Assembly (NCBI GenBank): GCA_964525185.1
Contig: CAZGFQ010000001.1
Span: forward strand, 29,486-93,485
Length of the DNA stretch: 64,000 nucleotides
Source: an uncultured bacterium
GTDB lineage: Bacteria > Fidelibacterota > Marinisomatia > Marinisomatales > UBA1611
Direction: 5' to 3'
This document shows, in pieces, positions 1 through 23,233 of this stretch. Numbering within the stretch: position 1 is the first letter of the stretch; every line of letters begins with the position of its first letter. The notes beneath the pieces are model-generated. The model was given only the letters and a program-made list of their open reading frames with translations, did not search any database and had not been told where the DNA came from. The translations under genes and the position numbers were made by a program.

Positions 1-326
1 TGTCCTGCCTGTATGCCTACTACGTGAGGTGTATAAACACATCCTTTTTGGTCAAGAACAACATGTTTTGATGGTGCCGCTGATGGAGTTGCTCCATCTG
101 AAACATACACAAGGACATTTTTTAAACCACCATTTCCATCAACAAGGAGCCATTCCTTTTTTGGTGGTGTTGTATTGTTGGCAACACAGACTGGGTCAGC
201 AGCAATTTTCAGTGGTTTCATTTTAGGCACTTTTCCTTCAAATGTAATTTTACCTGATACATCGCCACCAAGTAACACAGATACATTCAGTAAAAGGCCC
301 ATACTAATTATTAATGATTTTTTCAA
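1..326 (-). CDS. Secreted protein, N-terminal part only (gene runs off the window start); possibly cupredoxin-like
   Basis: The minus-strand frame is open from the window edge to TTG at 326..324, with GGAGG (332..336) 5 nt upstream. The product starts (M)KKSLIISMGLLLNVSVLLGG (signal-peptide-like) and continues ...VVLDQKGCVYTPHVVGIQAG. It is absent from the ORF track because it is truncated. The cupredoxin idea rests on memory of similar N-termini and is weak. Confidence 0.5.
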   Translation of the reverse strand, partial: MKKSLIISMGLLLNVSVLLGGDVSGKITFEGKVPKMKPLKIAADPVCVANNTTPPKKEWLLVDGNGGLKNVLVYVSDGATPSAAPSKHVVLDQKGCVYTPHVVGIQAG

Positions 327-390
327 AATTCCCTCCAAGATTTGTACAAATTTAGTAGCAGAAGTTAATAAATGATTTGGAAAAAGCGAG

Positions 391-430
391 ATAAAAAAGA
401 GCGGGATTAAAAATCCCCGCTCTTTTATTT
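391..430 (-). terminator. Rho-independent terminator after the 440..1705 gene
   Basis: Stem AAGAGCGGG (397..405) pairs with CCCGCTCTT (416..424) around a 10-nt loop. On the minus strand a T-run follows it (complement of the A-run at 393..398). Confidence 0.6.
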
Positions 431-439
431 TTCGCCAGT

Positions 440-1705
440 TTAGTGAGGTGCACCGGCTCCCAACCAACGACCAATAAGGTCAACAGCTGTAGTCATTTCA
501 CCTTCAACTGGGTCCCAAACGTCTGGACCGTCTCTATTTTCTTCACTTAACAGAAATGGTGCGTTTGGAGGCATTCGGTTGTCACGAAGACGATGCTTAA
601 TCCGACTGCTTCCCCAATCAATATCTGTTGCAGAAGTTAATGCAGTTTTGGTACCATTTAGTACTGGATGTTCTCCACCATCTGCACCATAGATAAACCC
701 ATCATATGAACTTAAATCCATTAAATGATAAGATTCATCAATATTGCCCCAATGGCATTCTACACATGGGGTACTATTGGTAAACCACATATTGTCGTCA
801 GTAAAAAATGGTAAAACATCGCTATTGAATGTTAAACCATCATCTCCAGCATAAGTAAATGGATCATCACCACCTACATTTAGATCGCCACCAGCTTTAA
901 GGTCTTCAACCCATGCTTCAATGAGCCCTAATGCATTAGGTACATTGTCGGGATCATCCCAACTTGTATACTGAATGGGTCTAATGACCGAAACAACACC
1001 ATCGCTGACACTAATATCTGGACCAAGGCGATTACTTTCGTCTCTCAAGAATTCCCATGCAGGTGCTTGAGGCATTCTGTTATTTCTCAAACGAGATCTT
1101 AACATGGCATTGTCCCATTCATAATCAGTATTTCCTGTCACGCTTTCACCAAATAATGGGTGACCACTACCATCTAGATTATCAGGATCTGGATCAGCTC
1201 CATACATCATACCTTCGAATGTACCAAGGTCCATTACATGCTTCGAATGAAGTTCTTCTTCATCATTTGCATAATGGCACCAAGTACATGCATCAGAACC
1301 GGGGAACCAGAAATTATCCGATGTAAACATGGGGTTAATATCTAGTGTATAGTCATATGAAGATCGCGATTCTGCAGTTACACTGATGATGATGCTTGCG
1401 CTTGCTCCTGATTCATCACCAACAACTGCAATAATAGCAGTCCCTTCAGAAATACCTGAAACTGTACCACCAGAAACGGATGCGACATTTTCATCACTAG
1501 ATGCCCAAGTATAACTTCCATCTGTACCATTATTGGTTGTTGCACTTACAGATACGCTACTACCACGAGCCACTGACGCTAATGCCGGGCTTACGGTAAG
1601 ATATACGCCTGCAGCTCCATCTGCTCCAGCCGGACCTTCGCAAGCCCAATTGGTCAGACTGAAAACTGTCAACAAGCTTATAACAGCTATGTTTGTTTTT
1701 TTCAT
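440..1705 (-). CDS. Secreted Big_2 (bacterial Ig-like) protein with two tandem c-type haem modules (CTWCH, CVECH)
   Basis: It has a signal peptide (MKKTNIAVISLLTVFSLTNWA). A Big_2-like stretch reads VSPALASVARGSSVSVSAT...YTWASSDENVASVSGGTVSGISEGTAIIAVV. Two internally repeated modules each carry CXXCH ... R(L)R(N/D)NRMP, and the C-terminus ends WLGAGAPH, like PSCyt1-type domains. A GGAGG sits 6 nt upstream of the ATG. Confidence 0.8.
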   Translation of the reverse strand: MKKTNIAVISLLTVFSLTNWACEGPAGADGAAGVYLTVSPALASVARGSSVSVSATTNNGTDGSYTWASSDENVASVSGGTVSGISEGTAIIAVVGDESGASASIIISVTAESRSSYDYTLDINPMFTSDNFWFPGSDACTWCHYANDEEELHSKHVMDLGTFEGMMYGADPDPDNLDGSGHPLFGESVTGNTDYEWDNAMLRSRLRNNRMPQAPAWEFLRDESNRLGPDISVSDGVVSVIRPIQYTSWDDPDNVPNALGLIEAWVEDLKAGGDLNVGGDDPFTYAGDDGLTFNSDVLPFFTDDNMWFTNSTPCVECHWGNIDESYHLMDLSSYDGFIYGADGGEHPVLNGTKTALTSATDIDWGSSRIKHRLRDNRMPPNAPFLLSEENRDGPDVWDPVEGEMTTAVDLIGRWLGAGAPH

Positions 1706-1777
1706 CTACTCCTCCTTTTTTAGGATCCTATTGTATTACCCTTGTGGATAATTCTTATTTGAAATGGAAACATATTT

Positions 1778-2929
1778 TTAAAAGAAAAACTGTGTTTCAA
1801 AATAAATTTGATCTTCATTGTCTGCATCATAAATATCCAAATTTGGCGCAGTACGGTAACGGTAAAAAATGGATGCTTGAAGATATTGGATAGGAAATAA
1901 TTCTAAACCAAAAGTCCAACGATCTCTTTCCTCAGTTGTCCACTTTGTCATCGGGTCCCAATGATCCCATGAAATTTTTAAATTCACTCCCTGGTAAAGG
2001 CGTGTATCAAGTGATAAATAAGTCATGGATTGGTCACCCACTTCATCATGTTTACCAAAATCACTCACTCCACTTCCATCTATATCTTTTTTCTGAAACA
2101 AATTTTTCTCAAACATCCATGTAAAAATCCCGTGGTTTCCACCAGCCAAAATTCCTGATACATATTCCGTTTGTTCATCGCCTTTATTAAATGAGAAAGA
2201 ACCACCAAATCTGAATCTTCTAAAAACCATAGAGCCTATTGTTGTAATTTGTTTATCAACAGCAGATGCATTTTGTCCATTTCCAACCGCTGTTATTAGA
2301 CTAAATGGACCTGGTTCAATACCAATTTCATATGCTGCTTCTTGTTTTCCATAAGAATTGAATCCTGTTTTCTGACGGATATATGATCCATCACCACCAT
2401 CATCTAATAATCGAAGACCAAAGGGCATCATAACTCTTCCAAATTTGATGTAACTATTTAGGGGCAAATTATAAACCATAGCAAATGCTTCACGATTAGC
2501 AGCTCCTGGAGCAAAATTTTCATCGATGTAAAATAACATGCGATCTGGTACTGCAGAAATTTCGAGATAAACATTTGCTTCAGGCATTGTAATTGAATTG
2601 TTATATCGCGGATCACCATCTTGACCAACTATATTTCGTGTCGAATCAGTTCCAATAATTGTTTTATTGGCTACACGAAAATTTGTCCCAATAGAAAAAT
2701 ATTCATTTATCATATTAGTGAACATGCCACTTTTACTTTTCGATTTAGCTTGAAAAGTTGGAAGGTTAGTTTGAGAATAAACAAAACCAAACCCCGTTCT
2801 TTTTCCGCCACCCGTTTTATTGACATGACATTGAGAGCATTTATACCCGGTTCTAACAGCTATATATGGTTCTGCTGATAAATTAGAAATTCCGATAAGA
2901 ATTATTGCAAGTATGATTAATTTTTTCAT
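1778..2929 (-). CDS. Fused monohaem cytochrome-porin, Cyc2-like architecture
   Basis: A signal peptide is followed by a single CSQCH at residues 31-35 (…YKCSQCHVNKTGGGKRTGFG). The remaining ~330 aa show alternating-hydrophobic beta-strand patterns and the protein ends in aromatic ...YFETQFFF, typical of outer-membrane barrels. The assignment is by architecture only. Confidence 0.55.
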   Translation of the reverse strand: MKKLIILAIILIGISNLSAEPYIAVRTGYKCSQCHVNKTGGGKRTGFGFVYSQTNLPTFQAKSKSKSGMFTNMINEYFSIGTNFRVANKTIIGTDSTRNIVGQDGDPRYNNSITMPEANVYLEISAVPDRMLFYIDENFAPGAANREAFAMVYNLPLNSYIKFGRVMMPFGLRLLDDGGDGSYIRQKTGFNSYGKQEAAYEIGIEPGPFSLITAVGNGQNASAVDKQITTIGSMVFRRFRFGGSFSFNKGDEQTEYVSGILAGGNHGIFTWMFEKNLFQKKDIDGSGVSDFGKHDEVGDQSMTYLSLDTRLYQGVNLKISWDHWDPMTKWTTEERDRWTFGLELFPIQYLQASIFYRYRTAPNLDIYDADNEDQIYFETQFFF

Positions 2930-3721
2930 TTATTCCGGAGCTCCAATTAGTACCCAAGTTTTAATTTGTTCTATTCTTTTGTTAGACAGGAAAGGGGGAC
3001 CATCTCGAGGCATTCTATCACCTTCTATATCTACACCAACCACTTTTTTTACGAGGTAACTCACATTTGGATACCATGGGTTGACTCTCAATAATTCGGG
3101 TACTTCAAATGCGGCATAATCCACTAATTGTTCATACGCCACTTCTTTTGTATTTAATAATAATTCGCCTGCCCCACTAGATGTGAGATGGCATGAACAA
3201 TTTTTATCAATAATATCATCATATACTATATCCCATGCGGATTCATCACTTATATCTAACGTATTGGAGAATGAACCAGTAGAATCAGGGTTTTCTAAAC
3301 TATTCCAAATGAAATCAACTTGTCCAGATGAACCATTTTCTCCATCAAATTCAATCCAAACTACAATTGAATCAGAACCTAATATTTCATCCCCAGAAGA
3401 AATGCCTTCAACCGATTCAATATTTCCTGTTAGAGTGATATCATTAATTGATAATGCTTCTGTCCCTGTATTTTTTAGGACAGTAACAACTTTTAATTCA
3501 TCACTACCTTCTTTAAATGGGATATCACTTAAGGATGTTAATGATATATCTAAGTGGCCAGCTTGGGGAACGAATGGTGTGCCATCAGGTTTAAGTTCAG
3601 AACCATCTCCCGCAAAAGATATTCCCATGGGGTCTCTCCAATCATCACCGCCACAGGAAATACATAATAATGCAATCATGAAAAGAGATATAATATTAAT
3701 TATTCTTAAGTCATTTTTCAT
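2930..3721 (-). CDS. Lipoprotein with C-terminal PSCyt1-like cytochrome domain carrying CSCH (CXCH) instead of CXXCH
   Basis: The signal/lipobox-like N-terminus is LFMIALLCISCGG. The C-terminal ...NCSCHLTSSGAGELLLNT...GDRMPRDGPPFLSNKRIEQIKTWVLIGAPE matches the remembered PSCyt1 pattern (C..CH...L.L...MP...L....I..WI..GA). A 4-nt ATGA overlap links it to the upstream gene, and it directly abuts the downstream gene. Confidence 0.7.
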   Translation of the reverse strand: MKNDLRIINIISLFMIALLCISCGGDDWRDPMGISFAGDGSELKPDGTPFVPQAGHLDISLTSLSDIPFKEGSDELKVVTVLKNTGTEALSINDITLTGNIESVEGISSGDEILGSDSIVVWIEFDGENGSSGQVDFIWNSLENPDSTGSFSNTLDISDESAWDIVYDDIIDKNCSCHLTSSGAGELLLNTKEVAYEQLVDYAAFEVPELLRVNPWYPNVSYLVKKVVGVDIEGDRMPRDGPPFLSNKRIEQIKTWVLIGAPE

Positions 3722-4638
3722 TGTGTTAACTCATAATCTTTTTTAAATAATTTGTAAATCAAGCTTTCCTTTTCACGTTGATCTAAGACATAATAGACAA
3801 GAGCCCATTTTCTCATTTGAAAATAAGTGTACATATCTTCTTCAGATTTATTATAAAGTTCATCCCCAGTAATTGACTTCTTAGCCCATGAGTCAAAAGC
3901 TTTAATATCGTCTTCCGAATACACAGCTTCTAAGTTGCTATAATCTCCAACAATATCTTCTCGAGCAAATCCAAAAATATCATCATCATATCCTGGCATG
4001 GGCGTCCCAGTCAATCCAGTTGAAAAAGTTCGATAAACATCAATTGGATCACTTCCTCCCTTAAAAGGATCGTGAGCAAAATCAGGAGGTACTATTGGAT
4101 TTCCCCAATCATTGACTAACTCATCAGATGTTGGTCCATCAGCATTCCCCTCTGGGCCATGACAGCTGAAACATTCCATGAGACGATATACCATTTGTCC
4201 ATCCTGAACTAATTCATCCGTTTTTTCTGGTACGACTGATGGAAGTTTTACTTCAGGAGCAGGTGTTTGAATAGTGAACTTTTCTGCAAAAGTTTTAATA
4301 TAGGATGTAACGTCAGCAACATCCTGTTCATTTAATATATTCTCCCAAGCGGGCATAGAAGTTCTAGTTACGCCATTTCGAATTGTTTTATGGATATTTT
4401 CATCTGTTGGAAGCGATCCTGATGGTGTCGTTCTAAAAAGGTATTTCCCTTTTGTAAAGTCTCGTGGAAGGGGAGATAGAACTATTGCAGCTGGACCATT
4501 TCCATTACCCGACATGCCATGGCACCCACTACAATTTGATTGGTATATTAATTTACCTTTATTTATATCGGGTAAATTATTTGCATTTCCAATGGTAATG
4601 AATATGGCAAATATTGAAATTATTTTAAATTTTTCCAT
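3718..4638 (-). CDS. Periplasmic dihaem class-I c-type cytochrome
   Basis: It has a signal peptide and two class-I modules: CSGCHGMSGNGNGPAA...TSMPAW and CFSCHGPEGNADGP...GTPMPGY. Confidence 0.85.
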   Translation of the reverse strand: MEKFKIISIFAIFITIGNANNLPDINKGKLIYQSNCSGCHGMSGNGNGPAAIVLSPLPRDFTKGKYLFRTTPSGSLPTDENIHKTIRNGVTRTSMPAWENILNEQDVADVTSYIKTFAEKFTIQTPAPEVKLPSVVPEKTDELVQDGQMVYRLMECFSCHGPEGNADGPTSDELVNDWGNPIVPPDFAHDPFKGGSDPIDVYRTFSTGLTGTPMPGYDDDIFGFAREDIVGDYSNLEAVYSEDDIKAFDSWAKKSITGDELYNKSEEDMYTYFQMRKWALVYYVLDQREKESLIYKLFKKDYELTQ

Positions 4639-5050
4639 TCGATCCTTTCAATGCTAATTCTTTAAAAGAAACATTACTTAGTATTTGATTGATTTCATTT
4701 TCAACTCGGTGCATCACATTTTGAAGTGGCTTACATTGATGTTGCCTACCACAATCTTCAAAATTCGTATCTTGACAATCAATCATATGCATTTCTCCTT
4801 CAAAAACCTCAATGACGGATTTCAACGATATATCACTGGGTGATTTAAGCAACTTATATCCACCATGAGTTCCTCGTATAGATTCCACAATATTATTTTT
4901 TACGAGTTGTTGTAAAATTTTGGAAAGGAACTCTTCTGGGAGATTTAATGCATCAGCAATTTCATGTTTGCTTTTTAAGTATCCTTTTGGATTAGAAGCG
5001 AAAAAACTCACCACTAATATGCCATAGTCACATGCTTTACTAATACCCAT
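4625..5050 (-). CDS. Rrf2-family transcriptional regulator (IscR/NsrR-like, three-Cys cluster motif)
   Basis: MGISKACDYGILVV...HEIADALNLPEEFLSKILQQLVKNNIVESIRGTHGGYKL is a typical Rrf2 wHTH. The CQDTNFEDCGRQHQC motif (C-x7-C-x5-C) suggests Fe-S binding. I prefer the ATG at 5050 over the track start at 5101 because Rrf2 proteins begin at this helix. A 14-nt overlap links it to the downstream cytochrome gene. Confidence 0.85.
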   Translation of the reverse strand: MGISKACDYGILVVSFFASNPKGYLKSKHEIADALNLPEEFLSKILQQLVKNNIVESIRGTHGGYKLLKSPSDISLKSVIEVFEGEMHMIDCQDTNFEDCGRQHQCKPLQNVMHRVENEINQILSNVSFKELALKGSNGKI

Positions 5051-5135
5051 AAATGTTTCTTTATTACTCCTTGATTCGTATAATGGACAAAATGAGTCCA
5101 CTTTCGATAAGAAAATATAGAAACTGAATATTAAA

Positions 5136-5169
5136 GTTAGATTAGAGTTAGATTAGAGAATTCTAATCT
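5136..5169. promoter_or_regulatory. Candidate operator: GTTAGATTAGA x2 tandem plus inverted repeat AGATTAGA-N4-TCTAATCT
   Basis: Two perfect 11-bp direct repeats lie at 5136..5146 and 5147..5157. An inverted repeat spans 5150..5157 / 5162..5169. The core GATTAGAGAATTCTAAT (5151..5167) recurs at 15301..15317 with one mismatch. The site lies upstream of the Rrf2 gene. Confidence 0.4.
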
Positions 5170-5234
5170 TTAGGCTAGCGCAAATGAGAGTTTTTTATAA
5201 ATTATTGAGAGATATCAGGAAAAGTGATTATCAA

Positions 5235-5558
5235 TTAATCAATTTTAATGTTATATAATTCTTCGAAAAGATCTGTTTTCATGATTCGTATTGCATCCCA
5301 AGTCAATTTTGTACATACTCGGGCACATACCTGACATCCAATGCATTCATCAAATCGTACTTGTACAGGTGGTATGGGTGAACCATATTTTTCTATTGGT
5401 ACTGGCTCAATACAATCTACGGGACAAAATGGAACACACGCCTGACAGCCAGTGCAATTATCTTCATCCACAATAGCCATAACTTTGGGGCGTTTTTTCT
5501 TTAGGTTTGGGACATCTGGTAATTCAGGAATCCCCTTAAAATGATTGTAAACTGCCAT
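5235..5558 (-). CDS. 2x[4Fe-4S] ferredoxin
   Basis: It carries CTGCQACVPFCP and CIGCQVCARVC motifs. Confidence 0.85.
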   Translation of the reverse strand: MAVYNHFKGIPELPDVPNLKKKRPKVMAIVDEDNCTGCQACVPFCPVDCIEPVPIEKYGSPIPPVQVRFDECIGCQVCARVCTKLTWDAIRIMKTDLFEELYNIKID

Positions 5559-5630
5559 TAATATTCTCTTCTTAGAACTGGAAATTTACACAGCTATATT
5601 ATTTTTCCTTCTTTTTTTTTGGGGATAATG

Positions 5631-7163
5631 CTAAAAACGATATGTCAACCCAAAATAGCCAAAAGACCTTGTATAATCTGCATCTTTTGAATAATCAATA
5701 CTTGTATACATGTTTAAATATTTACCTATTTTTTTTGAAATACTGATAGAGAATGTATGCTGTGTAAAATCATTCCAATTATTTCCGAACCCAAAAGTAT
5801 ATATTTCATAATCAGCATTAAAAAAACCATTTCTCAAAATGGGCTTGGAAATACCCCATTTATTTTGGAAACCTTTTAACAATTGATTTTGAATCATAAT
5901 ACTATTCCAATCAATCGATAAGCCATTTTGCGTTGGGTTAGTTCTATAATTGAATGAACGTACAGAAGAATATTGATCTGTCCCAGATTCTCTTCTGAAA
6001 TTGGATCCTAATTGAAGGATGCCCCAACGTTTTGTTTGTACTTTGAAGGCGTTATACCATCCATTTTTTAATTCGGACTGAAATAAAGAATCTGGCACTA
6101 AAATTTGAGATTGTTGATAAATAATTTGTTGGCGAGATGTATACCGAGATCGAAAAGTTATTTTTCGGGTTAATTTAATTTTAAGTGAAAATTGTGAAAA
6201 TGTTGATTCAAGTATTTCTCTGTTATAAACAGGATTATTTCTGTAAAAATCGAATGTTTGATACAATTTGACGGATAATTGATTTATGGGAGAATAGGAC
6301 ATTTTTGAATAGATGAATTCACGATCAATATCTGATCCAGCGTATTGCCCAACAAAAGCAATGCTACCTGTAAAATGGTGTTTCGGAAATTTGACTTTTG
6401 AAAAAAGTCCTAATTTTTTTATGTTTGTATTGAATTGGTACGATTCTGGATCTGGTTGAAGTCCACCCAAACCACCAATAATAATATTTTTCATGAGCGG
6501 GGATGTTGCTAATAAACCATCTGTGGCACCAATGCCTGAAAGTTCTGATGCAAAAACTCTCCCCAATTGAAAGAATGGTCCTTTATTTTTTATACCAAAA
6601 CTTGCTCGAGCTTGGTAAAGGGTAAATTGTTGATTTTGTAAATTGCTTCTTCCATAAATACCTATTTTAAAATGTTTTAGAGCTGGAGCACTTAATCCAT
6701 ATTGCAATGTTCCAATTCCTGATTGTTCTGAGACTCCGTCGGGAAGCGATTGAATTGTGGACCGAATGGATAAATGCCCCGATTGATTCAATTTCAGTTT
6801 TTCTTTCTCAGGTTTTTGAGGTTGATTAGTGGCAGGAGCAATTGGACTATCTGGAATAATTACATTGGTTTTTTCAAATTGAACTCGATCACCTATTTGA
6901 ATGGATTCTATAGGAACAAGGGGGGAAGAGACGGATGAATTTTTAGCTGAATGGGTGATGACCAAATCGCCTATAATTTCTGATCGGCGGAAAAGTTGAA
7001 GTGTATCCCCTACAGAAACCCCCTGTGAAGTTCCAATATCACAATACACTTGGTCTGCTGTCAAGTAAGTGACTTTTCCCTGCCCCGTAATGATTTCCAT
7101 ATTCTGTCCAAAACCAATCGCTAACAGACATATAAAAAGATTCTTTTTTAAAATATTAATCAT
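5631..7163 (-). CDS. Outer-membrane beta-barrel protein (putative porin partner of the multihaem cytochromes)
   Basis: The preferred start is the ATG at 7163 (MINILKKNLFICLLAIGFGQ is signal-peptide-like), giving an 8-nt overlap with the upstream gene. The track start at 7277 would overlap it by 120 nt. The body has long alternating-hydrophobic segments and the terminus is ...YFGLTYRF. No family was recognised. Confidence 0.6.
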   Translation of the reverse strand: MINILKKNLFICLLAIGFGQNMEIITGQGKVTYLTADQVYCDIGTSQGVSVGDTLQLFRRSEIIGDLVITHSAKNSSVSSPLVPIESIQIGDRVQFEKTNVIIPDSPIAPATNQPQKPEKEKLKLNQSGHLSIRSTIQSLPDGVSEQSGIGTLQYGLSAPALKHFKIGIYGRSNLQNQQFTLYQARASFGIKNKGPFFQLGRVFASELSGIGATDGLLATSPLMKNIIIGGLGGLQPDPESYQFNTNIKKLGLFSKVKFPKHHFTGSIAFVGQYAGSDIDREFIYSKMSYSPINQLSVKLYQTFDFYRNNPVYNREILESTFSQFSLKIKLTRKITFRSRYTSRQQIIYQQSQILVPDSLFQSELKNGWYNAFKVQTKRWGILQLGSNFRRESGTDQYSSVRSFNYRTNPTQNGLSIDWNSIMIQNQLLKGFQNKWGISKPILRNGFFNADYEIYTFGFGNNWNDFTQHTFSISISKKIGKYLNMYTSIDYSKDADYTRSFGYFGLTYRF

Positions 7164-7962
7164 GTTCACTCCCTGATGGGTGGCATTGATAACAAGCATT
7201 AGAATTATAAATATATCCCGATTCATCATCATGTTCATCGTCCATTTTACTTTGACGATGATCATGGCATACCCCATTTAAACCACAGGAAAATTCAGTG
7301 TAATCATTGGGATTAATATGACATTCTGCCGTGCAGGAAGTCCACTCATTTCGATGCTTTCCATTATATATAGGAAATAAAATATCATGATGTGACATAT
7401 CAATGGGTGACCAGGACCATGTGTTATGGCAAAGAATACAATCGGTATTATCAGGATGATTTCCAGCAATAATACTTTCTGATATTTCGGATTGATGGCA
7501 ACCATCACAATCCGTAGGCAACCAAGATGACCAGTTTTGTGAATTGGTTTGATGGCATTGGTTGCACAAGAGTGATTGATGCATTCCTGCCAATGGGAAT
7601 AGAGTCAATTCATGGTTGAAACCGGAAACAGACGTTTCCCAACTAATGGGAGAATGACATCGCTCGCAATCTAATCCATTTGCTTCTTGATGAATATCGA
7701 AATGGCAGTCACTACATTCAGTTGATTGATTTGAAAATTGATGTTTTTCTTCAACTGTATTTCCAATATGACATTGAATGCAATCAGCAAATTTATGTTG
7801 CCCTAACAATGTATATCGTGTTGTATTATGGTTAAAAAGTGGCTCATGAGATAAAGGTAGCCATGATTGTTCTCCATGGCAATCTGAACAGTCCATTGTT
7901 GTAATAATTTGATTTTGACTTAAACCAATAGTCAGTGTTAGCGTAATCATAATCCAAATCAT
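7156..7962 (-). CDS. Multihaem c-type cytochrome, 8 CXXCH + 1 CX3CH
   Basis: By manual count the motifs are CSDCH, CIQCH, CSDCH, CERCH, CNQCH, CDGCH, CILCH and CYQCH, plus CTAECH. It has a signal peptide and a 4-nt ATGA overlap with the upstream gene. Its N- and C-terminal modules are paralogous to those of the 925-aa cytochrome. Confidence 0.9.
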   Translation of the reverse strand: MIWIMITLTLTIGLSQNQIITTMDCSDCHGEQSWLPLSHEPLFNHNTTRYTLLGQHKFADCIQCHIGNTVEEKHQFSNQSTECSDCHFDIHQEANGLDCERCHSPISWETSVSGFNHELTLFPLAGMHQSLLCNQCHQTNSQNWSSWLPTDCDGCHQSEISESIIAGNHPDNTDCILCHNTWSWSPIDMSHHDILFPIYNGKHRNEWTSCTAECHINPNDYTEFSCGLNGVCHDHRQSKMDDEHDDESGYIYNSNACYQCHPSGSEHD

Positions 7963-10736
7963 TTGAATATTGGTTTATTATATTTCTTTTGTTTTTTAAT
8001 CCAAAAACGTAATAAATCACCGTCATCTCCATCATCTTCACTTCCATTCGGATGACAATTATAGCAGGCAGAACTTTCATAAACATAATCCGATTCTTCG
8101 TCATGTTCATCATCCATTTCACTTTGATCATGGTCGTGACAAACACCGTTTAACCCACACGAAAAATCCGTATAATCATCTGGATTGACATGACATTCCG
8201 CCTCGCAGCTGGTCCATTCATCCTCGTGTTCTCCTGAATAAATGGGGAAGTAATCCCCATCATGATCAAAGGTCACATCATCCCAATCCTCCGTGGTATG
8301 GCAGGCTTCGCAATTGGTGGGATCCCCATCATTATGCTCTTCATAAAAATCTTCCATATGACAAGATGCACACCCCTCGGTAATAGATGAATGATTAAAA
8401 TCGACGTCTTCCCAATCTGATGTTGAAGTATGGCATTGTTCACATTCGGTTGGGAATCCATCATCATGTTCTTCTTCAAAATCCGCCATGTGGCAATCTG
8501 CACATCCTGTTGTGATGTTGGTATGTTCAAAGGTTGCTCCTTCCCATGTATCTGTTCCTGTATGGCAATTTTCACATGTTTCAGAAAAACCTTGTCCAGT
8601 TGTATGGGGCGGATTTGACGCATTTTGGTAATCCACAAAATGGCAGGTGGCGCAAGGCGCACTCAAAGTATGAGCATAAATATCAGGCGACCAACCTAAA
8701 GGATTATGACATTCTTCACAAATATCAACAGAATATCCATAAACACTATGGTCAGGATCAGTTGTTTCATTAAAATCGGATAAGTGACATTGGCCATCCT
8801 GACATGAATTTGGTGTATTATTAATAATATTATTGATGTGACAATCATTACAGTCAGTCGTTAAATGTAATCCAAACAGAATAAAAGATGTTTGATCTTC
8901 TGTATGGGGAAACGGATCAATAATCCATTCCGAGGAATTGGGGTGGCAGAGCGCACAATCTGTGCTAATATTATTATTGCCATGGATTGGATCAGTACTA
9001 TTTTCATGTTCCGGAGTATGACATTCTTGACAATTTGTTTCTGTGAAATTGACATGATCAAAAATCAATTCTTCCCAAGATTGATCCGCATGGCATAACG
9101 CACAATTGTTGTTTATATTATGAGATGTATGGTTATAATCTGACGTTGTGGAATTGGTTGTAGCCAACCCACCATCAATATGGCATCCAGAGCAGTCTGA
9201 TGGTAAATCAAAATTTCCAACATCATGGCATTGTTCACAATCGATTAAAGCGTGGGCTCCACCAAGAGGAAAGTCTGTTAAGGAATGGTCAAATTCTGCC
9301 CCTTCCCATGTTTCAGTTGAATGGCACACTTCACAATTTTGACTATATTGGTCATCTGAATGAGATGGAGAATCAGGATAAACAGATGTGCCTGTTTCAT
9401 TAAAATCTTGCTCGTGACAAGACCAACAGTCGTTGGGTGTATTATTGTATATTTCATTTACATGACAGGATTCGCAATTAGTAGTAAGGTGTGCACCTGT
9501 CAAAAGATAATCTGTTTGTGAGACTGTATGGGTGAAGGGCGAAATAGTCCACGATTCTGTTGTGGCATGACATACTTCACAATCGGGACTGATATTTCCA
9601 TCAGCATGTGGTGGGTTGATGGAATTGATTTGTTCGGGAATATGGCAGGATTTGCAATCCGTATTGGTAAAATTGATATGATTAAAAATAAGTTCAGCCC
9701 AATGTGATCCCACGTGGCAGTTTTCACAGGTTTCATTGATTTGATGTGACTCATGATCATAGTCCGATTGGAGAGAATTTGTCGAAGCTAATCCGCCATC
9801 AACATGGCACCCAGCACAATCCATTGGAAGATCATAATTCCCGTCGCCGTGACATTGGTTACAGGTAATTGTATTATGCGCATCTAGAAGTGGGAATTCC
9901 GTTTCATTATGATCAAAAACTGCACCTTTCCATGTGCTCGTTGAATGGCATGCTAAACAATCTTGAGAATACCCAGCTTCAATATGACTTGGAGCATCAG
10001 GGAAAACGGATGTTCCTGTTTCGATAAATTCTGTTTCATGGCAGGACCAACAATTTTCCGGAAAATCATATGTTCCCCCCGAATGACATTTAGCACATGG
10101 GGTAGATTTATGGGCTCCATCTAAAATAAAATCTGAAACTAATTCATGGACAAACGTAGATGGTGTCCAAGATGATTGACTCGTTGAATGGCATTCTTCA
10201 CAGTCAGTATTTAGTCTTGATTCGATGTGAGCTGGATTTGTGGAACGATCATAATCAAGCCGATGACAATCATAACAATCAGTCGGGGTCAAATCAAAGT
10301 TTGTCATAGGTGTTTCTGTGTGGCATTCCCGACATAGTGTTTGTTTATGAGAGCCTAATAATGAAAATTGTGTTAATTCATGATTAAATGTCTTAGTTGT
10401 GACTTGCCAGGAATCATTTCCATGACATTGAGCGCAGTCATTTCCTAACTTATTTTTATGTACATCCAGATGGCATGATGAACATTCATTTTCATCTAGA
10501 CTAAATTGATGCTTTTCAGCCACGGTATTTCCTTGGTGGCAAGATGCGCAATCTTGAATACGATGACTCCCTTGCAATGGGAAATTGGTTATTGAGTGGG
10601 AGAACCCTTTTAAACTCAATGTAGTCCAATCATCTCCGCCATGACAATCGCTACATTCAAGCCCAGCCACATTGAGTTCTTGATTCTGAGCAGAAATAGT
10701 CCATTGCAATAGCATGATTAAAAAGAACCTTTTCAT
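7959..10736 (-). CDS. Giant multihaem c-type cytochrome, 32 CXXCH + CX4CH + CX3CH
   Basis: It has a signal peptide (MKRFFLIMLLQWTISAQ). By manual count there are 32 canonical CXXCH motifs, plus CQDGQCH (residue 645) and CEAECH (residue 844). F.H..T.F.L.G.H....C..CH units recur throughout, and a 4-nt ATGA overlap is present at both ends. Confidence 0.9.
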   Translation of the reverse strand: MKRFFLIMLLQWTISAQNQELNVAGLECSDCHGGDDWTTLSLKGFSHSITNFPLQGSHRIQDCASCHQGNTVAEKHQFSLDENECSSCHLDVHKNKLGNDCAQCHGNDSWQVTTKTFNHELTQFSLLGSHKQTLCRECHTETPMTNFDLTPTDCYDCHRLDYDRSTNPAHIESRLNTDCEECHSTSQSSWTPSTFVHELVSDFILDGAHKSTPCAKCHSGGTYDFPENCWSCHETEFIETGTSVFPDAPSHIEAGYSQDCLACHSTSTWKGAVFDHNETEFPLLDAHNTITCNQCHGDGNYDLPMDCAGCHVDGGLASTNSLQSDYDHESHQINETCENCHVGSHWAELIFNHINFTNTDCKSCHIPEQINSINPPHADGNISPDCEVCHATTESWTISPFTHTVSQTDYLLTGAHLTTNCESCHVNEIYNNTPNDCWSCHEQDFNETGTSVYPDSPSHSDDQYSQNCEVCHSTETWEGAEFDHSLTDFPLGGAHALIDCEQCHDVGNFDLPSDCSGCHIDGGLATTNSTTSDYNHTSHNINNNCALCHADQSWEELIFDHVNFTETNCQECHTPEHENSTDPIHGNNNISTDCALCHPNSSEWIIDPFPHTEDQTSFILFGLHLTTDCNDCHINNIINNTPNSCQDGQCHLSDFNETTDPDHSVYGYSVDICEECHNPLGWSPDIYAHTLSAPCATCHFVDYQNASNPPHTTGQGFSETCENCHTGTDTWEGATFEHTNITTGCADCHMADFEEEHDDGFPTECEQCHTSTSDWEDVDFNHSSITEGCASCHMEDFYEEHNDGDPTNCEACHTTEDWDDVTFDHDGDYFPIYSGEHEDEWTSCEAECHVNPDDYTDFSCGLNGVCHDHDQSEMDDEHDEESDYVYESSACYNCHPNGSEDDGDDGDLLRFWIKKQKKYNKPIFK
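8805..10052 (-). repeat. In-frame tandem duplication (2 x ~208 codons, 8 CXXCH each) inside the 925-aa cytochrome gene
   Basis: Residues 229-436 (CWSCHETEFIETGTSVFPDAPSH...) align colinearly with residues 437-644 (CWSCHEQDFNETGTSVYPDSPSH...). A third, truncated copy starts at residue 645 with CQDGQCHLSDFNETTDPDH. Confidence 0.8.
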
Positions 10737-12139
10737 CGGATATCACCCGTGAGTTTGTGACAATCAACGCACCGGCTTGGGATAGGTTGATAGCGCGTAA
10801 ATATTCCCACCTCATCTCGTTCAGTTGGGTGGCAATCTTGACAAGGAACATTTTGATGTTTTCTGTCTAAAGGGAATTGGGTTGAATCGTGTTGAAATTC
10901 TATAGTATTAAATGATGCTGATATGTGGCAAGATTCACATGTATTATTGTAATGAATCGCAAATTGATTTCGGTGTTCATCTTTATGACAAATTTTGCAT
11001 TCCGGGTTTTCCCATGTAAACTGAATTTGTGATTTTCCCGATTTTGTCTGGTAGGGTTTATGACATTGATTGCACGGAACTGCCATATGCCCACCATCCA
11101 ATACAAAACGCGAAATAAGGTGCATAGAAAAAGTAAATGTGGTTGGTTTAAATCCATTTACGGTATGACATGCAGCACAATCGCCTCCATCTTGTCTTCG
11201 GGTAAATTGTCCTTCATGATAATCGGCATGGCACGCTTGACAAGAAAGGTATAAGGGGAGAGTACCTGCTAAAGTTTGGTTATGGCAATCCATGCATTTC
11301 ACATTTGCATGTTTTCCGTCCAATGGGTATTTCGTTTTGGAATGATCAAAAGATTTTGTTTTTTTCCAATTTTCTGTGATGTGGCAGGATTCACATTTAT
11401 TCCCGTAACTGCCTTTGTGATAATCAGTATGGCATGAAGTACAGGATTCAAAATCGATTCCGGTAAGTTGCTGAACGGGTGGATTCCAATCTAAATGTTT
11501 TGTATGACATTTTTCGCAATCCACTTTTTTATGGGCTCCAGTCAGATGAAATTGAGAATTTTTATGATTAAAAGATTTGGATGCATCGGTCCAATTATTC
11601 ACATTATGACATGATTGACAATCAGATCCAACTTCACCTTTATGAATGTCACTATGGCAACTTTGGCAATCTTGAGATAAACCTAAAAAAGTGCGATCTA
11701 ATACAGGGAATGTGGTATTTTCATTTGCCCATTTGATGATAGGTTCCCAGACAATATTTTCTGCAGAGTGACATTCTCCACATTTAACTTTTCTATGTTT
11801 ACCTTCTAATCGATATCCCGTTTCATTATGGTCAAATTTGGCCATATTTTTTGGCCAAAATACCAATTCAAATTCTTTTCCATTATGATCGGAGTGGCAT
11901 AGACCACAATCTTTTTTTCGATCATCCCGATGATAACCCTTGTTTTGGTCCATCTTAATTTTCAAAGGTGTATGGCATTTTACACAGCCATCTGAAATTT
12001 CTTTTTTACCCAACTCATGACATTGGACGCAATTGGAGGTGCCTTCCAAATCCGCGTGGTATTTGGATAAAGGTCCAGGGGAAAATTGACTAAATATTAC
12101 CGATGTCATCATCATGAATTGAAGGATCAGTTTTTTCAT
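10733..12139 (-). CDS. Multihaem c-type cytochrome, 17 CXXCH
   Basis: The count of 17 CXXCH motifs is manual. The ATG at 12139 gives a signal peptide (MKKLILQFMMMTSVIFSQ), whereas the track start at 12166 is a TTG. Confidence 0.9.
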   Translation of the reverse strand: MKKLILQFMMMTSVIFSQFSPGPLSKYHADLEGTSNCVQCHELGKKEISDGCVKCHTPLKIKMDQNKGYHRDDRKKDCGLCHSDHNGKEFELVFWPKNMAKFDHNETGYRLEGKHRKVKCGECHSAENIVWEPIIKWANENTTFPVLDRTFLGLSQDCQSCHSDIHKGEVGSDCQSCHNVNNWTDASKSFNHKNSQFHLTGAHKKVDCEKCHTKHLDWNPPVQQLTGIDFESCTSCHTDYHKGSYGNKCESCHITENWKKTKSFDHSKTKYPLDGKHANVKCMDCHNQTLAGTLPLYLSCQACHADYHEGQFTRRQDGGDCAACHTVNGFKPTTFTFSMHLISRFVLDGGHMAVPCNQCHKPYQTKSGKSQIQFTWENPECKICHKDEHRNQFAIHYNNTCESCHISASFNTIEFQHDSTQFPLDRKHQNVPCQDCHPTERDEVGIFTRYQPIPSRCVDCHKLTGDIR

Positions 12140-12172
12140 TTGGTGCACATTCAGGTTGCGTGTCAAGACACA

Positions 12173-13039
12173 TTAACCATAACTCTCATGCGTGATTTGC
12201 TTTTTCTCAATCCCCAAGCCATCCAGAGAAAGCAAGACAGATTCCAAAAATCTGGGGGCAGGGGCAATTCCTTCTTTTCGTGCAGAGATCTTTTCATATT
12301 TTGATATACCCGGACCGCACAAATAAATCTGTGGGTGGTCCATTTTAGCCAATTCTCGTTCAATCCGTTCAGGGGTGATTCTGCCTGTTTGATAGGGAAG
12401 ATTAAATCCATCCGGTTCTTCACGAGTGAATAAAAAATCAACCGTTAATTGATCAGGGAATTCCATTTGTAAATCGATCAATTGTTTTCCAAAAATGGTA
12501 TTGTTCCAAGATTGATTGCTATAAACCAAGGTGTGTTTGATATCCGGGTAAAATTTTAAGGCATATTTTAATATACTATAATTGGGGACAATACCACTTC
12601 CTGCACAAATGTGTAGAATTTCGCTGGGCAAGGGTTCATTTTTTGGCAATGTGTAAGGTCCCGTAAATCCGGTCACTATCATTTTTGAACCTTTGTGCGT
12701 TCTTTTCGCAAGGATTGGAGAAAGGAGAGGCGGATACTTGGATTTTCCCGGATAATACATTTCTTCTTTGATGGTAATAGCCAGATATTTTTCATCTGGA
12801 GAACTGGATAAAGAATAAGCTCTCGGACTTTCCTTTTTACCTTTTTTATCTTCCAAAAAAGCCGTCCATCTTTCCAATGCTACAAATTGATGGGGATCAA
12901 TGGTCAAAAAATGCCCTGGTTCATAATCCAATAAATCATTCCCGGTAAACAGAATTAATGTTGTTGTATCAGGCGTCTCTTCGATTACATCTGCGACCAT
13001 GATTTCAAGTTTTTTTATTTTTTTACGATTTGTGCTCAT
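12173..13039 (-). CDS. Ferredoxin-NADP reductase-like FAD/NAD(P)-binding oxidoreductase
   Basis: It carries RAYSLSS (the RxYS FAD motif), the ICAGSGIVP nucleotide-binding motif and LCGPG near the C-terminus. There is no signal peptide. Confidence 0.8.
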   Translation of the reverse strand: MSTNRKKIKKLEIMVADVIEETPDTTTLILFTGNDLLDYEPGHFLTIDPHQFVALERWTAFLEDKKGKKESPRAYSLSSSPDEKYLAITIKEEMYYPGKSKYPPLLSPILAKRTHKGSKMIVTGFTGPYTLPKNEPLPSEILHICAGSGIVPNYSILKYALKFYPDIKHTLVYSNQSWNNTIFGKQLIDLQMEFPDQLTVDFLFTREEPDGFNLPYQTGRITPERIERELAKMDHPQIYLCGPGISKYEKISARKEGIAPAPRFLESVLLSLDGLGIEKKQITHESYG

Positions 13040-13077
13040 GCTTAAAATAGCTTCTCTTATAGTATTAACGACTGAAA

Positions 13078-14391
13078 CTAAGCCTTTGCTTCAACTTTTT
13101 TCCCAAATTCAATCCCGATAGAATTAAGCAGAGGAAAGGGTAATTCACCACCGGCGAATATAAATGTATAATCATTTTCTAATTCAACGGAAGAATCGGG
13201 AGTTTGCAAGGTGACTGTGGTGTTCGTAATTTTTTTTGGATTAGAATTTAAAACAGCTTTCAATAATCCATTTGAAATTGCTTCTTCAATATGGGATTCA
13301 TTTCTCGCTTTCAGGCGAAAGAAATTTTCCTTCCGATAAGAAATGGTTACCTCATTCCCCTCCTGATGGGCAAGTCCCAGAGCAGCTTCAATGGCACTAT
13401 CTCCACCGCCAACGACTAAAAGTTTTTTATGTTTATAGGTTTCTGCATCAATGAGCTTATACATCACTTTCCCTAATTCTTCTCCTGGAATGCCTAATTT
13501 CCTAGGAGTTCCTCTTCTGCCCAAAGCTAACACGACTCTGGAAGCCGAGGCGGGGCCAGAAGATGTTTCTATCGTAAAATTCCCTTGTTCGCCTGCAATT
13601 CCTTTCAATTGATGATTTGAAAGTAATCGAACTTTTTGTTCTCGGATAACTTTTTCCCAAATTGCCAATAAATCTTCTTTTTCATATTCGCCTTTTTCCA
13701 AAGCGCCAAATAAAGGTAATTCTACTGGCTGAACCAATACCAACTTTCTTCTTGGATATTGCAAGATGGTTCCACCGGGTTGATCCTGATCCAATACTAA
13801 ATAATTGAGGCCCAATTCCTTAGCTCGCAATCCTGCGGACAACCCAGCAGGCCCTGCACCAATAATGACTACATCAAATTCAGCTTTTGAACTTTCATCC
13901 TTATTGCGATGTATATGATCCACAGCCGTAACGCCATGGCTGATGGCATTTTTAATTAAGGCTAAACCGCTCAATTCACCAATAATATAGAGCCCTGGAA
14001 TATTGGTTTCAAAATCGTCCGATAATTGAGGAATATCTTCTCGTTGACTGATATCTCCTAATCCAATTTCAATCCCAGAAACCGGACACGCTTCAGCGCA
14101 TTTTCCATGTCCTACACAATGGCTGCCGTGAATGATAGTTGCTTTCCCGTCAATCAATCCCAAGACTGTACCTTCTGGACACGCATCCACGCAAATACCA
14201 CACCCAATACATAGCGATTGATTTATGATCGGATGTTGTAACAAAGCTTTATCTTGTCTTTTTGCGCGGGTTTCCTCGAGTCGTTTTCGGGTAAGAGCGT
14301 CCTTTTTTTTCATGGTTTGAATGTAGGGAATCAAAAAAATAAGGATAATCATAATGCCGATTCCCCATGAGAGTAATAATTCTGTATTCAT
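13078..14391 (-). CDS. Membrane-anchored Fe-S flavoprotein (ferredoxin domain + FAD/NAD(P) pyridine-nucleotide-disulfide-oxidoreductase-like domain)
   Basis: It has an N-terminal TM helix, CIGCGICVDACP, and CVGHGKCAEACP (His in place of the second Cys), followed by DVVIIGAGPAGLSAGLRA and LLVVGGGDSAIEAA dinucleotide folds. The ATG at 14391 overlaps the upstream stop by 1 nt; the track start at 14403 is a GTG. Confidence 0.8.
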   Translation of the reverse strand: MNTELLLSWGIGIMIILIFLIPYIQTMKKKDALTRKRLEETRAKRQDKALLQHPIINQSLCIGCGICVDACPEGTVLGLIDGKATIIHGSHCVGHGKCAEACPVSGIEIGLGDISQREDIPQLSDDFETNIPGLYIIGELSGLALIKNAISHGVTAVDHIHRNKDESSKAEFDVVIIGAGPAGLSAGLRAKELGLNYLVLDQDQPGGTILQYPRRKLVLVQPVELPLFGALEKGEYEKEDLLAIWEKVIREQKVRLLSNHQLKGIAGEQGNFTIETSSGPASASRVVLALGRRGTPRKLGIPGEELGKVMYKLIDAETYKHKKLLVVGGGDSAIEAALGLAHQEGNEVTISYRKENFFRLKARNESHIEEAISNGLLKAVLNSNPKKITNTTVTLQTPDSSVELENDYTFIFAGGELPFPLLNSIGIEFGKKVEAKA

Positions 14392-15257
14392 CAAAACACC
14401 CACGTATAACCCATGGCAACGACCACGGTAACATGAATAATCATGATAACAATCATCGTGTATGCAAATGGCTTATGAATCACATGCCAATAATGAAAAA
14501 GAGAATGGGCTGCAGACCAAAATGCAATTTGTCGATCCATTTTAACAATTTGACGTAAAGAATGCTTAAAAGATTTCATATCGGAATCTGAAACAGAAGC
14601 GGATGATTGAATATCTTTTTTAATTTTTTGCCATTTGAACCAACCGGTAATATCCATAAAAAGGATAGTAAAAATGCCCCATAACCCTCTTTTTTCAATT
14701 TGATCTGCACCAGATAAATCTCGGATGTGGTTAATGGTTTGGTTAGAAATACTAAATTTATTTTGAAAAGTTTGAATGATGTTCGAGAGATTGTCTTTGA
14801 ATTCATCTCTTGTTAATTCTTTCCCACTGACACGATGAGGAATCTTGATATAGATATAACGTCCGATAAATCCACTGGAAGCCACAGCTACCATGGACCA
14901 ATAAGAGATAGAAACCAAACCACCAAATTTAAAAGCTGTATGAAAGGTGACGAGAATAGGTCCAGCTATTCCGAGAAAAATATGATAATTAAGCCATGTA
15001 GGCAATTTGCCCCATTTCTTAAAAATTCCAACACGCTTTCTCAGGGAATACGCAAACATAATGATCATCATTAAACTACCTGCAATTCCAAGTCCATGAC
15101 CAATAAATCCACCTGGTTTCCACGCGCGATGAAGAGCAATTCGGGGACGATCAATCATGGATGCACCATAATAGTCCCCCGCCGTCAGTAAAATCCACAC
15201 AACAAACCCAAAGGTTATGAATGAAAAAAAGGTAATGATATATCGATGGATATTCAT
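14391..15257 (-). CDS. Six-TM membrane protein with two H-x13-H pairs (candidate dihaem-b, ferric-reductase/NOX-like transmembrane domain)
   Basis: One TM helix reads YHIFLGIAGPILVTFH and the last reads HKPFAYTMIVIMIIH, each with two His exactly 13 residues apart. The preceding LRKRVGIFKKWGKLPTWLNYHIFLG resembles the ferric-reductase domain motif. A loop of ~100 aa separates TM4 and TM5. Confidence 0.55.
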   Translation of the reverse strand: MNIHRYIITFFSFITFGFVVWILLTAGDYYGASMIDRPRIALHRAWKPGGFIGHGLGIAGSLMMIIMFAYSLRKRVGIFKKWGKLPTWLNYHIFLGIAGPILVTFHTAFKFGGLVSISYWSMVAVASSGFIGRYIYIKIPHRVSGKELTRDEFKDNLSNIIQTFQNKFSISNQTINHIRDLSGADQIEKRGLWGIFTILFMDITGWFKWQKIKKDIQSSASVSDSDMKSFKHSLRQIVKMDRQIAFWSAAHSLFHYWHVIHKPFAYTMIVIMIIHVTVVVAMGYTWVF

Positions 15258-22085: not shown

Positions 22086-22093
22086 ATGTCACT

Positions 22094-23212: not shown

Positions 23213-23233
23213 AAGAAACCTCGTAATTTGAGT

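Follow-up and report, generated by a model that had tools for sequence, protein, structure and literature searches.

The 64,000-nucleotide stretch of DNA analysed here (the window; positions 29,486 to 93,485 of contig CAZGFQ010000001.1 in GenBank assembly GCA_964525185.1, from an uncultured bacterium of the order Marinisomatales, Fidelibacterota) carries on its minus strand the gene for a 383-amino-acid (aa) protein, here called the haem-porin, in which one c-type haem motif near the start of the mature chain is fused to a predicted 16-strand beta-barrel. This architecture, partly read from the sequence and partly modelled, supports its designation as a fused monohaem cytochrome-porin, and sequence comparison places it in a large family that is unannotated in Pfam-A and NCBIfam and is distinct from Cyc2. 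The chances are about even that the haem-porin forms the point at the outer membrane where electrons enter a periplasmic chain of cytochromes and copper proteins, with Fe(II) as its likeliest substrate, and that it is a functional analogue of Cyc2 outside the Cyc2 family. A wider proposal, put forward tentatively, is that a second family of fused cytochrome-porins, either independent of Cyc2 or diverged from it past recognition, together with obligate FoxE-type and dihaem partners, constitutes an unrecognised outer-membrane electron-uptake module, for which Fe(II) is the best guess.

A large family defined by its haem peptide

The haem-porin (Table 1) begins with the signal peptide MKKLIILAIILIGISNLSA, continues as EPYIAVRTGYKCSQCHVNKTGGGKRTGFGF and ends in IYFETQFFF; the plus-strand frame of the same interval is riddled with stop codons. 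The signal peptide has n-, h- and c-regions and ends in the A-x-A-like LSA, with cleavage predicted before E20, and conservation in the family alignment begins at A19/E20, matching this predicted cleavage point. The haem motif starts 11 residues into the mature chain. A regular-expression search counts a single CXXCH, whose C31 and C34 are the sole cysteines of the 383 residues. An earlier, sequence-only reading of this DNA had described a 383-aa open reading frame (ORF) with a signal peptide, one CSQCH (residues 31-35) and then VNKTGGGKRTGFG, and a FETQFFF end; translation and regular-expression search agree with it on each of these, the ORF lying on the minus strand, a point which that reading left unstated. 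The G+C content of the window is 35.9%.

Searches with the haem-porin gave no Pfam or NCBIfam match at E ≤ 0.1 and no PDB sequence match at E ≤ 10, and every one of its 240 word-indexed homologues is labelled 'hypothetical'. The closest relatives (90%, 85% and 69% identical) come from marine metagenomes and from metagenome-assembled genomes named Candidatus Marinimicrobia, which makes it very probable that the window belongs to a SAR406/Marinimicrobia genome. A profile built from 117 homologues and run against 1.84 billion proteins recovered 2,140 clusters (50% identity) at E ≤ 1e-3, 1,053 of them at ≤ 1e-10, with named hosts in Marinimicrobia (SAR406), KSB1, Gemmatimonadota, Bdellovibrionota and Calditrichota. 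No published description of the family was found in the literature searched, and in the literature on Cyc2, FoxE or extracellular electron transfer in Marinimicrobia no paper was found that assigns such a gene to this group.

All 225 full-length family members examined carry CXXCH, 217 of them once and eight twice. Column frequencies over 223 members are 1.00 for the C, C and H of the motif and 1.00, 0.97 and 0.95 for the three residues of the GGG that follows it, and the flanks are kept almost as strictly (E 0.98, P 0.99, Y 0.91, G 0.96, N 0.96, R 1.00). Invariant or near-invariant positions flanking the motif include E20, G28, G40, G41, R44 and G48, and the family consensus is A-E-P-Y-[LI]-A-[VI]-R-T-G-x-K-C-S-Q-C-H-V-N-x-T-G-G-G-x-R-T-x-F-G-x-x-Y.

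Residues 31-46 (CSQCHVNKTGGGKRTG) look like the N-terminal haem segment of a mitochondrial-type class I cytochrome c (CAQCHTVEKGGKHKTG); the haem-porin does not have the P-N-L that comes next in class I cytochrome c. Such a likeness could hint at where the fused haem peptide came from.

Barrel fold

AlphaFold2, given the family alignment as input, returned a 16-strand barrel with a mean predicted local distance difference test (pLDDT) of 83.5 and a predicted template modelling score (pTM) of 0.83. DSSP placed the strands of this model at residues 78-92, 111-127, 131-140, 144-155, 159-166, 197-204, 209-216 and 227-235 (strands 1-8) and 239-249, 253-266, 269-282, 300-312, 315-325, 335-344, 350-360 and 373-382 (strands 9-16). 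The approximately 330 aa of beta-strand-like segments described in the sequence-only reading correspond in the model to 16 strands spanning residues 78-382, and the barrel part of the structural check proposed there, for 16 strands, came out in its favour in both the AlphaFold2 scores and the Foldseek search. Against the PDB, Foldseek returned 16-strand porins only (E 1e-12 to 1e-9, template modelling score ~0.6), with VhChiP and OmpT at the top, OprP (2o4v) at rank 4 and OprO (4rjx and 4rjw) at ranks 13 and 15; PorB and OmpF were further matches.

A long loop between strands 5 and 6 sits where general porins have the L3 constriction loop and is the best-conserved part of the family after the haem peptide, with P169, G171, R173 and R185 invariant and D176 and T188 near-invariant. 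This loop may fold into the lumen and help to hold the haem. The strongly kept lumen-facing and L3-like residues are R85, D136, R146, E147, R173, R185, E201, E274 and N316.

The operon and its conserved neighbourhood

The haem-porin gene is the fourth of five genes that read in the order Rrf2-family regulator, 306-aa dihaem cytochrome c, 263-aa lipoprotein, haem-porin and 421-aa lipoprotein, and the first four are closely packed: the first junction overlaps (4625/4638), the second overlaps by 4 nucleotides (3718/3721) and the third abuts (2929/2930). The hairpin downstream of the fifth gene is the sole terminator-like site within positions 1-5800 and probably marks the end of the transcription unit. 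A scan for sigma-70 promoters found fewer sites than in shuffled sequences.

The proteins on either side of the haem-porin are related to FoxE, the Fe(II)-oxidising dihaem cytochrome of the phototroph Rhodobacter ferrooxidans (PMC10654088). The 421-aa protein matches FoxE (PDB 5mab) with 52.9 bits and E 2.7e-13, both domains being aligned, and its haem motifs CTWCH and CVECH are each followed by NRMP. For the 263-aa protein, a profile of six orthologues matches both FoxE haem domains at E 2.5e-7. Its haem motif is a shortened CSCH (C-X-C-H; residues ~175-178), which recurs in the 58%-identical Marinimicrobia orthologue (L121:7210-8004) and is, since it stands in two genomes, not a sequencing error; the orthologues at loci L124-L130 have a normal CXXCH (CTLCH, CVRCH, CTSCH, CIECH, CTECH and CTQCH). 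The 306-aa dihaem cytochrome matches chain B of PDB 6h5l, a Kuenenia stuttgartiensis HAO-type structure, at E 5.2e-52; we take this chain to be the cytochrome partner of the Kuenenia HAO-like protein.

Gene context was compared across the window and eight other loci from several phyla, with porins 35-69% identical to the haem-porin. The order dihaem cytochrome c, FoxE-type monohaem protein, haem-porin was kept in all nine. In L121, L127 and L128 the porin gene is followed by a gene for a Big_2/FoxE-like dihaem protein. Ahead of the triad in L124, L125 and L129 lie genes for multi-domain cupredoxins whose sites read CTITGHxxxGM. Copper proteins of the CDxHxxM type are encoded beside the triad in L121, L127 and L129, and also at the truncated end of the window, where the translation of positions 1-313 matches the product of L121:10675-11376, which has a blue-copper-like CDVHPWM site. 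In L121, the Marinimicrobia locus with the 69%-identical porin, next after the copper-like gene come an Rrf2 gene and a cluster for an aa3 oxidase (COX2-COX1-COX3-COX3-COX4-CtaA), these last two lying 2.5 kb downstream; in L128 a RuBisCO gene lies 6 kb from the module. Neither foxY (a pyrroloquinoline-quinone protein) nor foxZ (a transporter) is present in the window operon or in L121-L130.

The nearest NCBIfam models of the Rrf2-family regulator are the SUF regulator, RirA, CymR, IscR and NsrR; it has a three-cysteine cluster (C..x..C..x..C) at residues ~109-124, and its gene stands in the same position in L121-L123. An Rrf2 gene heads the operon in Marinimicrobia only, and sigma-54 activators or two-component systems lie beside the triad in L125, L127 and L128. 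In the window, the operon is closely preceded by a gene for a small 2x[4Fe-4S] ferredoxin (5235-5558, minus strand). In L126, a Bdellovibrionota contig, positions 5154-9146 hold a dihaem cytochrome c gene followed by two tandem pairs of FoxE-type and haem-porin genes (porins P0107 and P0104). The copper-like flanking protein, of ~180-250 aa with H-N-[VT]-H ... C-D-x-H-x-W-M and a CarboxypepD_reg-like domain, flanks the module in several phyla, with copies at L121:10675-11376, L121:4248-4967, L124:9174-9932, L129:5323-6027, L127:8977-9531 and positions 1-313 (minus strand) of the window.

Table 1 Coordinates of the haem-porin, its sequence elements and the neighbouring features (positions in the window)
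Feature	Position	Strand	Description	Basis
Haem-porin gene	1778..2929	minus	383 aa; stop codon 1778-1780	ORF and translation
Signal peptide	2873..2929	minus	Residues 1-19, MKKLIILAIILIGISNLSA; Sec-type	Read from sequence
Haem peptide	2777..2875	minus	Residues 19-51, AEPYIAVRTGYKCSQCHVNKTGGGKRTGFGFVY; family-defining	Column frequencies, 223 members
Haem-attachment motif	2825..2839	minus	CSQCH, residues 31-35	Regular expression
Predicted 16-strand beta-barrel	1781..2698	minus	Residues 78-383; C-terminal Phe	DSSP on AlphaFold2 model
Long conserved loop	2342..2431	minus	Residues 167-196, MPFGLRLLDDGGDGSYIRQKTGFNSY; between strands 5 and 6	Non-strand segment in AlphaFold2 model
Rrf2-family regulator gene	4625..5101	minus	First gene of the unit	Pfam Rrf2, 1.3e-31
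Dihaem c-type cytochrome gene	3718..4638	minus	306 aa; two CXXCH	Pfam Cytochrom_C and Cytochrome_CBB3
FoxE-type monohaem lipoprotein gene	2930..3721	minus	263 aa; one C-terminal FoxE-type domain (...RMP...W..GAP)	Alignment and profile
FoxE-like dihaem lipoprotein gene	440..1705	minus	421 aa; Big_2 and two FoxE-type haem domains	Pfam Big_2; PDB 5mab
Terminator-like hairpin and T-run	403..417	minus	23 nucleotides past the stop of the 421-aa gene	Consensus match only
Cupredoxin-like/CarboxypepD_reg-type gene, 5' part	1..313	minus	Cut by the window edge	Translation GDVSGKITFEGKVPKMKPLKIAADPVCVANN

Proposed electron path and its direction

In the proposed mechanism, the precursor would be exported by Sec and cut before E20, the cytochrome c maturation (Ccm) system would attach haem to C31 and C34 with H35 as the proximal ligand, and the barrel-assembly machinery (BAM) would insert the barrel by way of its C-terminal Phe signal. 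The haem peptide would be lodged within the lumen or at its periplasmic opening and would pack there against the L3-like loop and an invariant charged lining of R85, D136, R146, E147, K162, E201, E274, N316 and E343. One haem on its own does not reach across the membrane, so a small redox substrate in solution would have to diffuse into the pore from outside and exchange an electron with the haem there. The electron would pass to the FoxE-type monohaem lipoprotein, the dihaem cytochrome c, the FoxE-like dihaem lipoprotein and, in relatives, the cupredoxins, and these periplasmic carriers would deliver it to a terminal oxidase or a bc-type complex.

Fe(II) is the best candidate for the substrate because Cyc2, which shares the design, and FoxE, which is homologous to the neighbours, are both Fe(II) oxidases, and the FoxE-like neighbours lend the Fe(II) assignment some independent support. 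Fe(II) oxidation by the host is plausible.

Several points weigh against a role in electron uptake from Fe(II). The sequence of the haem-porin itself fixes neither Fe(II) nor any other substrate, and gene content fixes no direction of flow, since electron-transfer chains are reversible. The FoxE-type domains are related, in faint precomputed matches, to the widespread PSCyt1 domain, so that homology to FoxE marks a fold family and not a function, and the CSCH motif means that the middle protein of the Marinimicrobia operon may bind haem in an unusual way or not at all. AlphaFold2 confidence is low at residues 14-30, and the model was built without haem. Finally, no Met or His apart from H35 is invariant in the family; the haem could therefore be five-coordinate, a state more in keeping with catalysis or the binding of a ligand than with plain electron transfer. 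Candidates for a sixth ligand, if there is one, are Y22, Y134 and K162.

The same haem-porin could be run outward, with electrons from a bc complex or the periplasm reducing a dissolved acceptor such as Mn(III)/Mn(IV), chelated Fe(III) or iodate. This is unlikely. In its favour, c-type cytochrome chains are reversible, Marinimicrobia are abundant in oxygen-deficient waters, and the window has the make-up of a respiratory island: it encodes cytochromes with 8, 17 and 32 haems, a further putative barrel and a complex built on cytochrome b, a gene set typical of extracellular electron transfer. However, what accompanies the porin from phylum to phylum is a set of small cytochromes and cupredoxins, not the multihaem wires, and the multihaem cluster is absent from L121, despite its 69%-identical porin, and from L124-L130. 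The aa3 oxidase and RuBisCO genes near the module in relatives suit electron uptake better, and the only characterised comparators, in architecture or by homology, are Cyc2 and FoxE, both Fe(II) oxidases.

Relationship to Cyc2

Cyc2 has been described as a 16-strand porin with a single CXXCH and, by the FeGenie rule, at least 365 aa, in which AXPXFAR[Q/K][T/Y], 'unique to Cyc2' and used as a screen, ends five residues before CXXCH and PXL stands four residues after it (Keffer et al. 2021; PMC8406198). By signal peptide and single N-terminal CXXCH, by length (383 aa) and by its predicted 16-strand barrel, the haem-porin resembles Cyc2. It departs from Cyc2 in both flanking motifs: upstream, in the same register, it has AEPYIAVRT, which keeps A, P, A and T but has I for F, V for R and R for Q/K, and downstream, CSQCH-VNKT-GGG replaces the PXL. 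These replacements hold family-wide, with [LI]A[VI]R in place of FAR[Q/K] and GGG-x-R in place of PXL. A regular-expression search found no canonical Cyc2 motif elsewhere in the window.

For profile comparisons, 120 genomic loci with the canonical motif were fetched by a degenerate DNA pattern for PXFAR[QK][TY]x3CXXCHx4PXL, and the 89 full-length motif-bearing Cyc2 proteins extracted from them, from Zetaproteobacteria, Mariprofundus, Gallionella, Sideroxydans, Chlorobium, Nitrospira, Bacteroidales, Brocadiales and others, were used to build subgroup hidden Markov models (HMMs) of our own as surrogates for those of FeGenie. These surrogate HMMs scored the haem-porin at 7.4, 1.7, 4.2 and -2.4 bits, whereas the Cyc2 subgroups scored 33-98 bits against one another. 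No member of the haem-porin family exceeded 17 bits with the Cyc2 HMMs, and no canonical Cyc2 exceeded 15 bits with the haem-porin family HMM.

Alignment of the two families with hhalign gave probabilities of 93.5% in local and 97% in global mode, with the signal peptide and haem region as the source, and no score when one alignment was reversed. The cytochrome region alone, 38 columns in which the haem motifs line up, reached a probability of 94% (P 1e-7); the barrel alone was not significant (probability 9% local, P 0.83 global). When the signal peptide was cut and C, C and H were held fixed, the score was 30.5 against 20.1 +/- 3.5 for shuffles, and one of 200 shuffles reached the real score. 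A 60-column 'barrel' match to Gallionella/Zeta-type Cyc2 has 3% identity and also fits a shifted hairpin, which marks it as generic beta-hairpin periodicity. The high hhalign probabilities were therefore rejected as proof of homology, splitting, reversing and shuffling having traced the score to the signal peptide and the CXXCH anchor.

That the haem-porin is a true but highly diverged Cyc2, sharing its ancestry over the whole fused protein and oxidising Fe(II) in the same way, is rather improbable. The two share architecture, size, the placement of the motif at the mature N-terminus and an OprP/OprO-type 16-strand barrel, and AEPYIAVRTgykCSQCH and AxPxFAR[QK][TY]xxxCxxCH have A, P, A and T in common at identical spacing, in line with the overall hhalign probabilities. 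Yet FAR and PXL are replaced throughout the family, the HMM scores lie far below those between Cyc2 subgroups, the barrels show no significant profile similarity, their lone match is a generic one, and the flanks stand only ~3 standard deviations above shuffles. By sequence, the haem peptide faintly resembles that of Cyc2, which may reflect either a common origin or convergence, and the haem-porin is outside the Cyc2 family as that family is defined.

The sequence-only reading had proposed a Cyc2-type protein and had named the lack of a significant match to Cyc2 profiles as a result that would refute it. Its architectural part stands, in the signal peptide, the haem motif, the predicted 16-strand barrel, the C-terminal Phe and the cytochrome operon; its claim of family membership fails on that very ground, the surrogate HMMs, at most 7.4 bits, having given no significant match.

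Other roles for the haem

The haem might instead serve outside respiration, in a sensor, a gated channel, a surface peroxidase or detoxifying enzyme, or an ion channel plugged by the haem peptide. A five-coordinate haem, which may follow from the lack of a conserved sixth ligand, would suit such functions, as would lumen-facing and L3-like residues that are unusually conserved for a porin; the porin part of Cyc2 is reported to be poorly conserved (PMC8406198). Every locus examined nevertheless holds two or three periplasmic c-type cytochromes, often with cupredoxins, and this strict co-occurrence would make little sense unless the haem gave or received electrons; even a peroxidase would still use the chain. 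Such a role is improbable.

An ordinary porin with a fortuitous CXXCH, suggested by the resemblance of the barrel to general porins, is effectively refuted, because the motif is invariant across the family, being kept with at least 12 near-invariant flanking positions in 225 of 225 relatives from at least five phyla, and because the only two cysteines sit in the motif and the cytochrome neighbourhood is conserved.

Other electron-transfer genes in the window

A second cluster (5631-12166, minus strand) holds cytochromes with 8 (7156-7962), 32 (7959-10736) and 17 (10733-12166) CXXCH motifs together with a 548-aa protein that ends in FGLTYRF, has no Pfam match and is a putative large barrel. Its layout is like that of a porin-cytochrome conduit, and it is absent from the syntenic Marinimicrobia locus L121. 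Right after the multihaem genes, positions 12173-15257 (minus strand) encode an NAD-binding oxidoreductase, a 441-aa iron-sulphur/flavin pyridine-nucleotide-disulphide oxidoreductase and a cytochrome b561-like membrane protein, which could form the inner-membrane or cytoplasmic end of the multihaem conduit.

Further along, positions 19089-24025 (minus strand) include a split cytochrome b, with petB-like (23234-24025) and petD-like (22094-23212) parts, followed by a 998-aa protein with eight CXXCH motifs and class I cytochrome c domains. These genes may encode a bc-type complex whose cytochrome subunit is uncommonly large. In L121 the same pair (372 aa and 1,013 aa) adjoins the haem-porin operon.

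Significance

Fe(II) oxidation is at present predicted from genomes and metagenomes mainly through Cyc2, a genetic marker recognised by its motif and by HMMs. The design of the haem-porin is a known one; what is new is a separate family with its own motif and its own partners, large and phylogenetically broad. Because it has no Cyc2 motif and near-zero scores with Cyc2-type HMMs, this family is probably invisible to marker-gene tools. It occurs mostly in uncultured lineages, including SAR406, which ranks among the most numerous groups in the dark ocean and in oxygen-deficient zones. If the haem-porin does act as an electron-uptake protein, marker surveys would systematically miss a capacity for iron oxidation or other extracellular redox reactions. 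The linkage to FoxE-type cytochromes would likewise join Cyc2-like entry at the outer membrane and FoxE-like oxidation in the periplasm, so far treated as unrelated, and FoxE-type proteins would gain an outer-membrane partner. The small size, the single haem and the confident prediction make the protein tractable for expression and spectroscopy.

Comparison with known systems

The closest likeness is to Cyc2 (Acidithiobacillus ferrooxidans, Mariprofundus ferrooxydans PV-1 and FeGenie clusters 1-3). Both are ~380-480 aa proteins in which a CXXCH, ~11 residues behind the mature N-terminus, is fused to an OprP/OprO-type barrel of 16 strands, and both are encoded beside periplasmic c-type cytochromes, with copper proteins and an aa3 oxidase in some relatives. 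They differ in that the barrel and L3-like loop are far better conserved in the haem-porin family than is reported for Cyc2, in the absence of HMM-level and of any detectable barrel similarity, in their neighbours, which are FoxE-type and Kuenenia-type dihaem cytochromes for the haem-porin and Cyc1 (c4) for Cyc2, and in their hosts, those of the haem-porin family being Marinimicrobia, Calditrichota, KSB1, Gemmatimonadota and Bdellovibrionota. The rus operon of Acidithiobacillus (cyc2-cyc1-cup-cox-rus) follows the same partner logic as the haem-porin loci with non-orthologous parts.

Cyc572 of Leptospirillum is another cytochrome-porin fusion (PMC10654088). Compared by description only, it follows the same idea as the haem-porin, joining a haem motif to a barrel in the outer membrane, and it differs in its acidophilic Nitrospirota hosts and in its context.

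OprP and OprO served as templates for the modelling of Cyc2 (Keffer et al.; PMC8406198). Like these two (2o4v, 4rjw) and the general 16-strand porins, the haem-porin is predicted to have 16 antiparallel strands, a long loop after strand 5 and a C-terminal aromatic residue; identity to them is ~10%, and they have neither a haem peptide nor a cytochrome gene context.

With FoxE (strain SW2, PDB 5mab, foxEYZ) the relationship lies in the neighbours, the 421-aa protein with two domains and the 263-aa protein with one, and not in the haem-porin itself. Unlike FoxE, these neighbours are lipoproteins and have additional domains, either Big_2 or a beta-rich region at the N-terminus, and the monohaem copy of Marinimicrobia has CSCH. 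We know of no dedicated outer-membrane partner of FoxE.

The MtrAB, MtoAB and PioAB systems likewise pair a barrel with c-type haem as a route for electrons through the outer membrane. They consist of two proteins, a ~26-strand barrel around a decahaem wire, whereas the haem-porin would combine 16 strands and one haem in a single polypeptide; an MtrB-like role as a sheath was considered and rejected, 16 strands being too few to hold a cytochrome.

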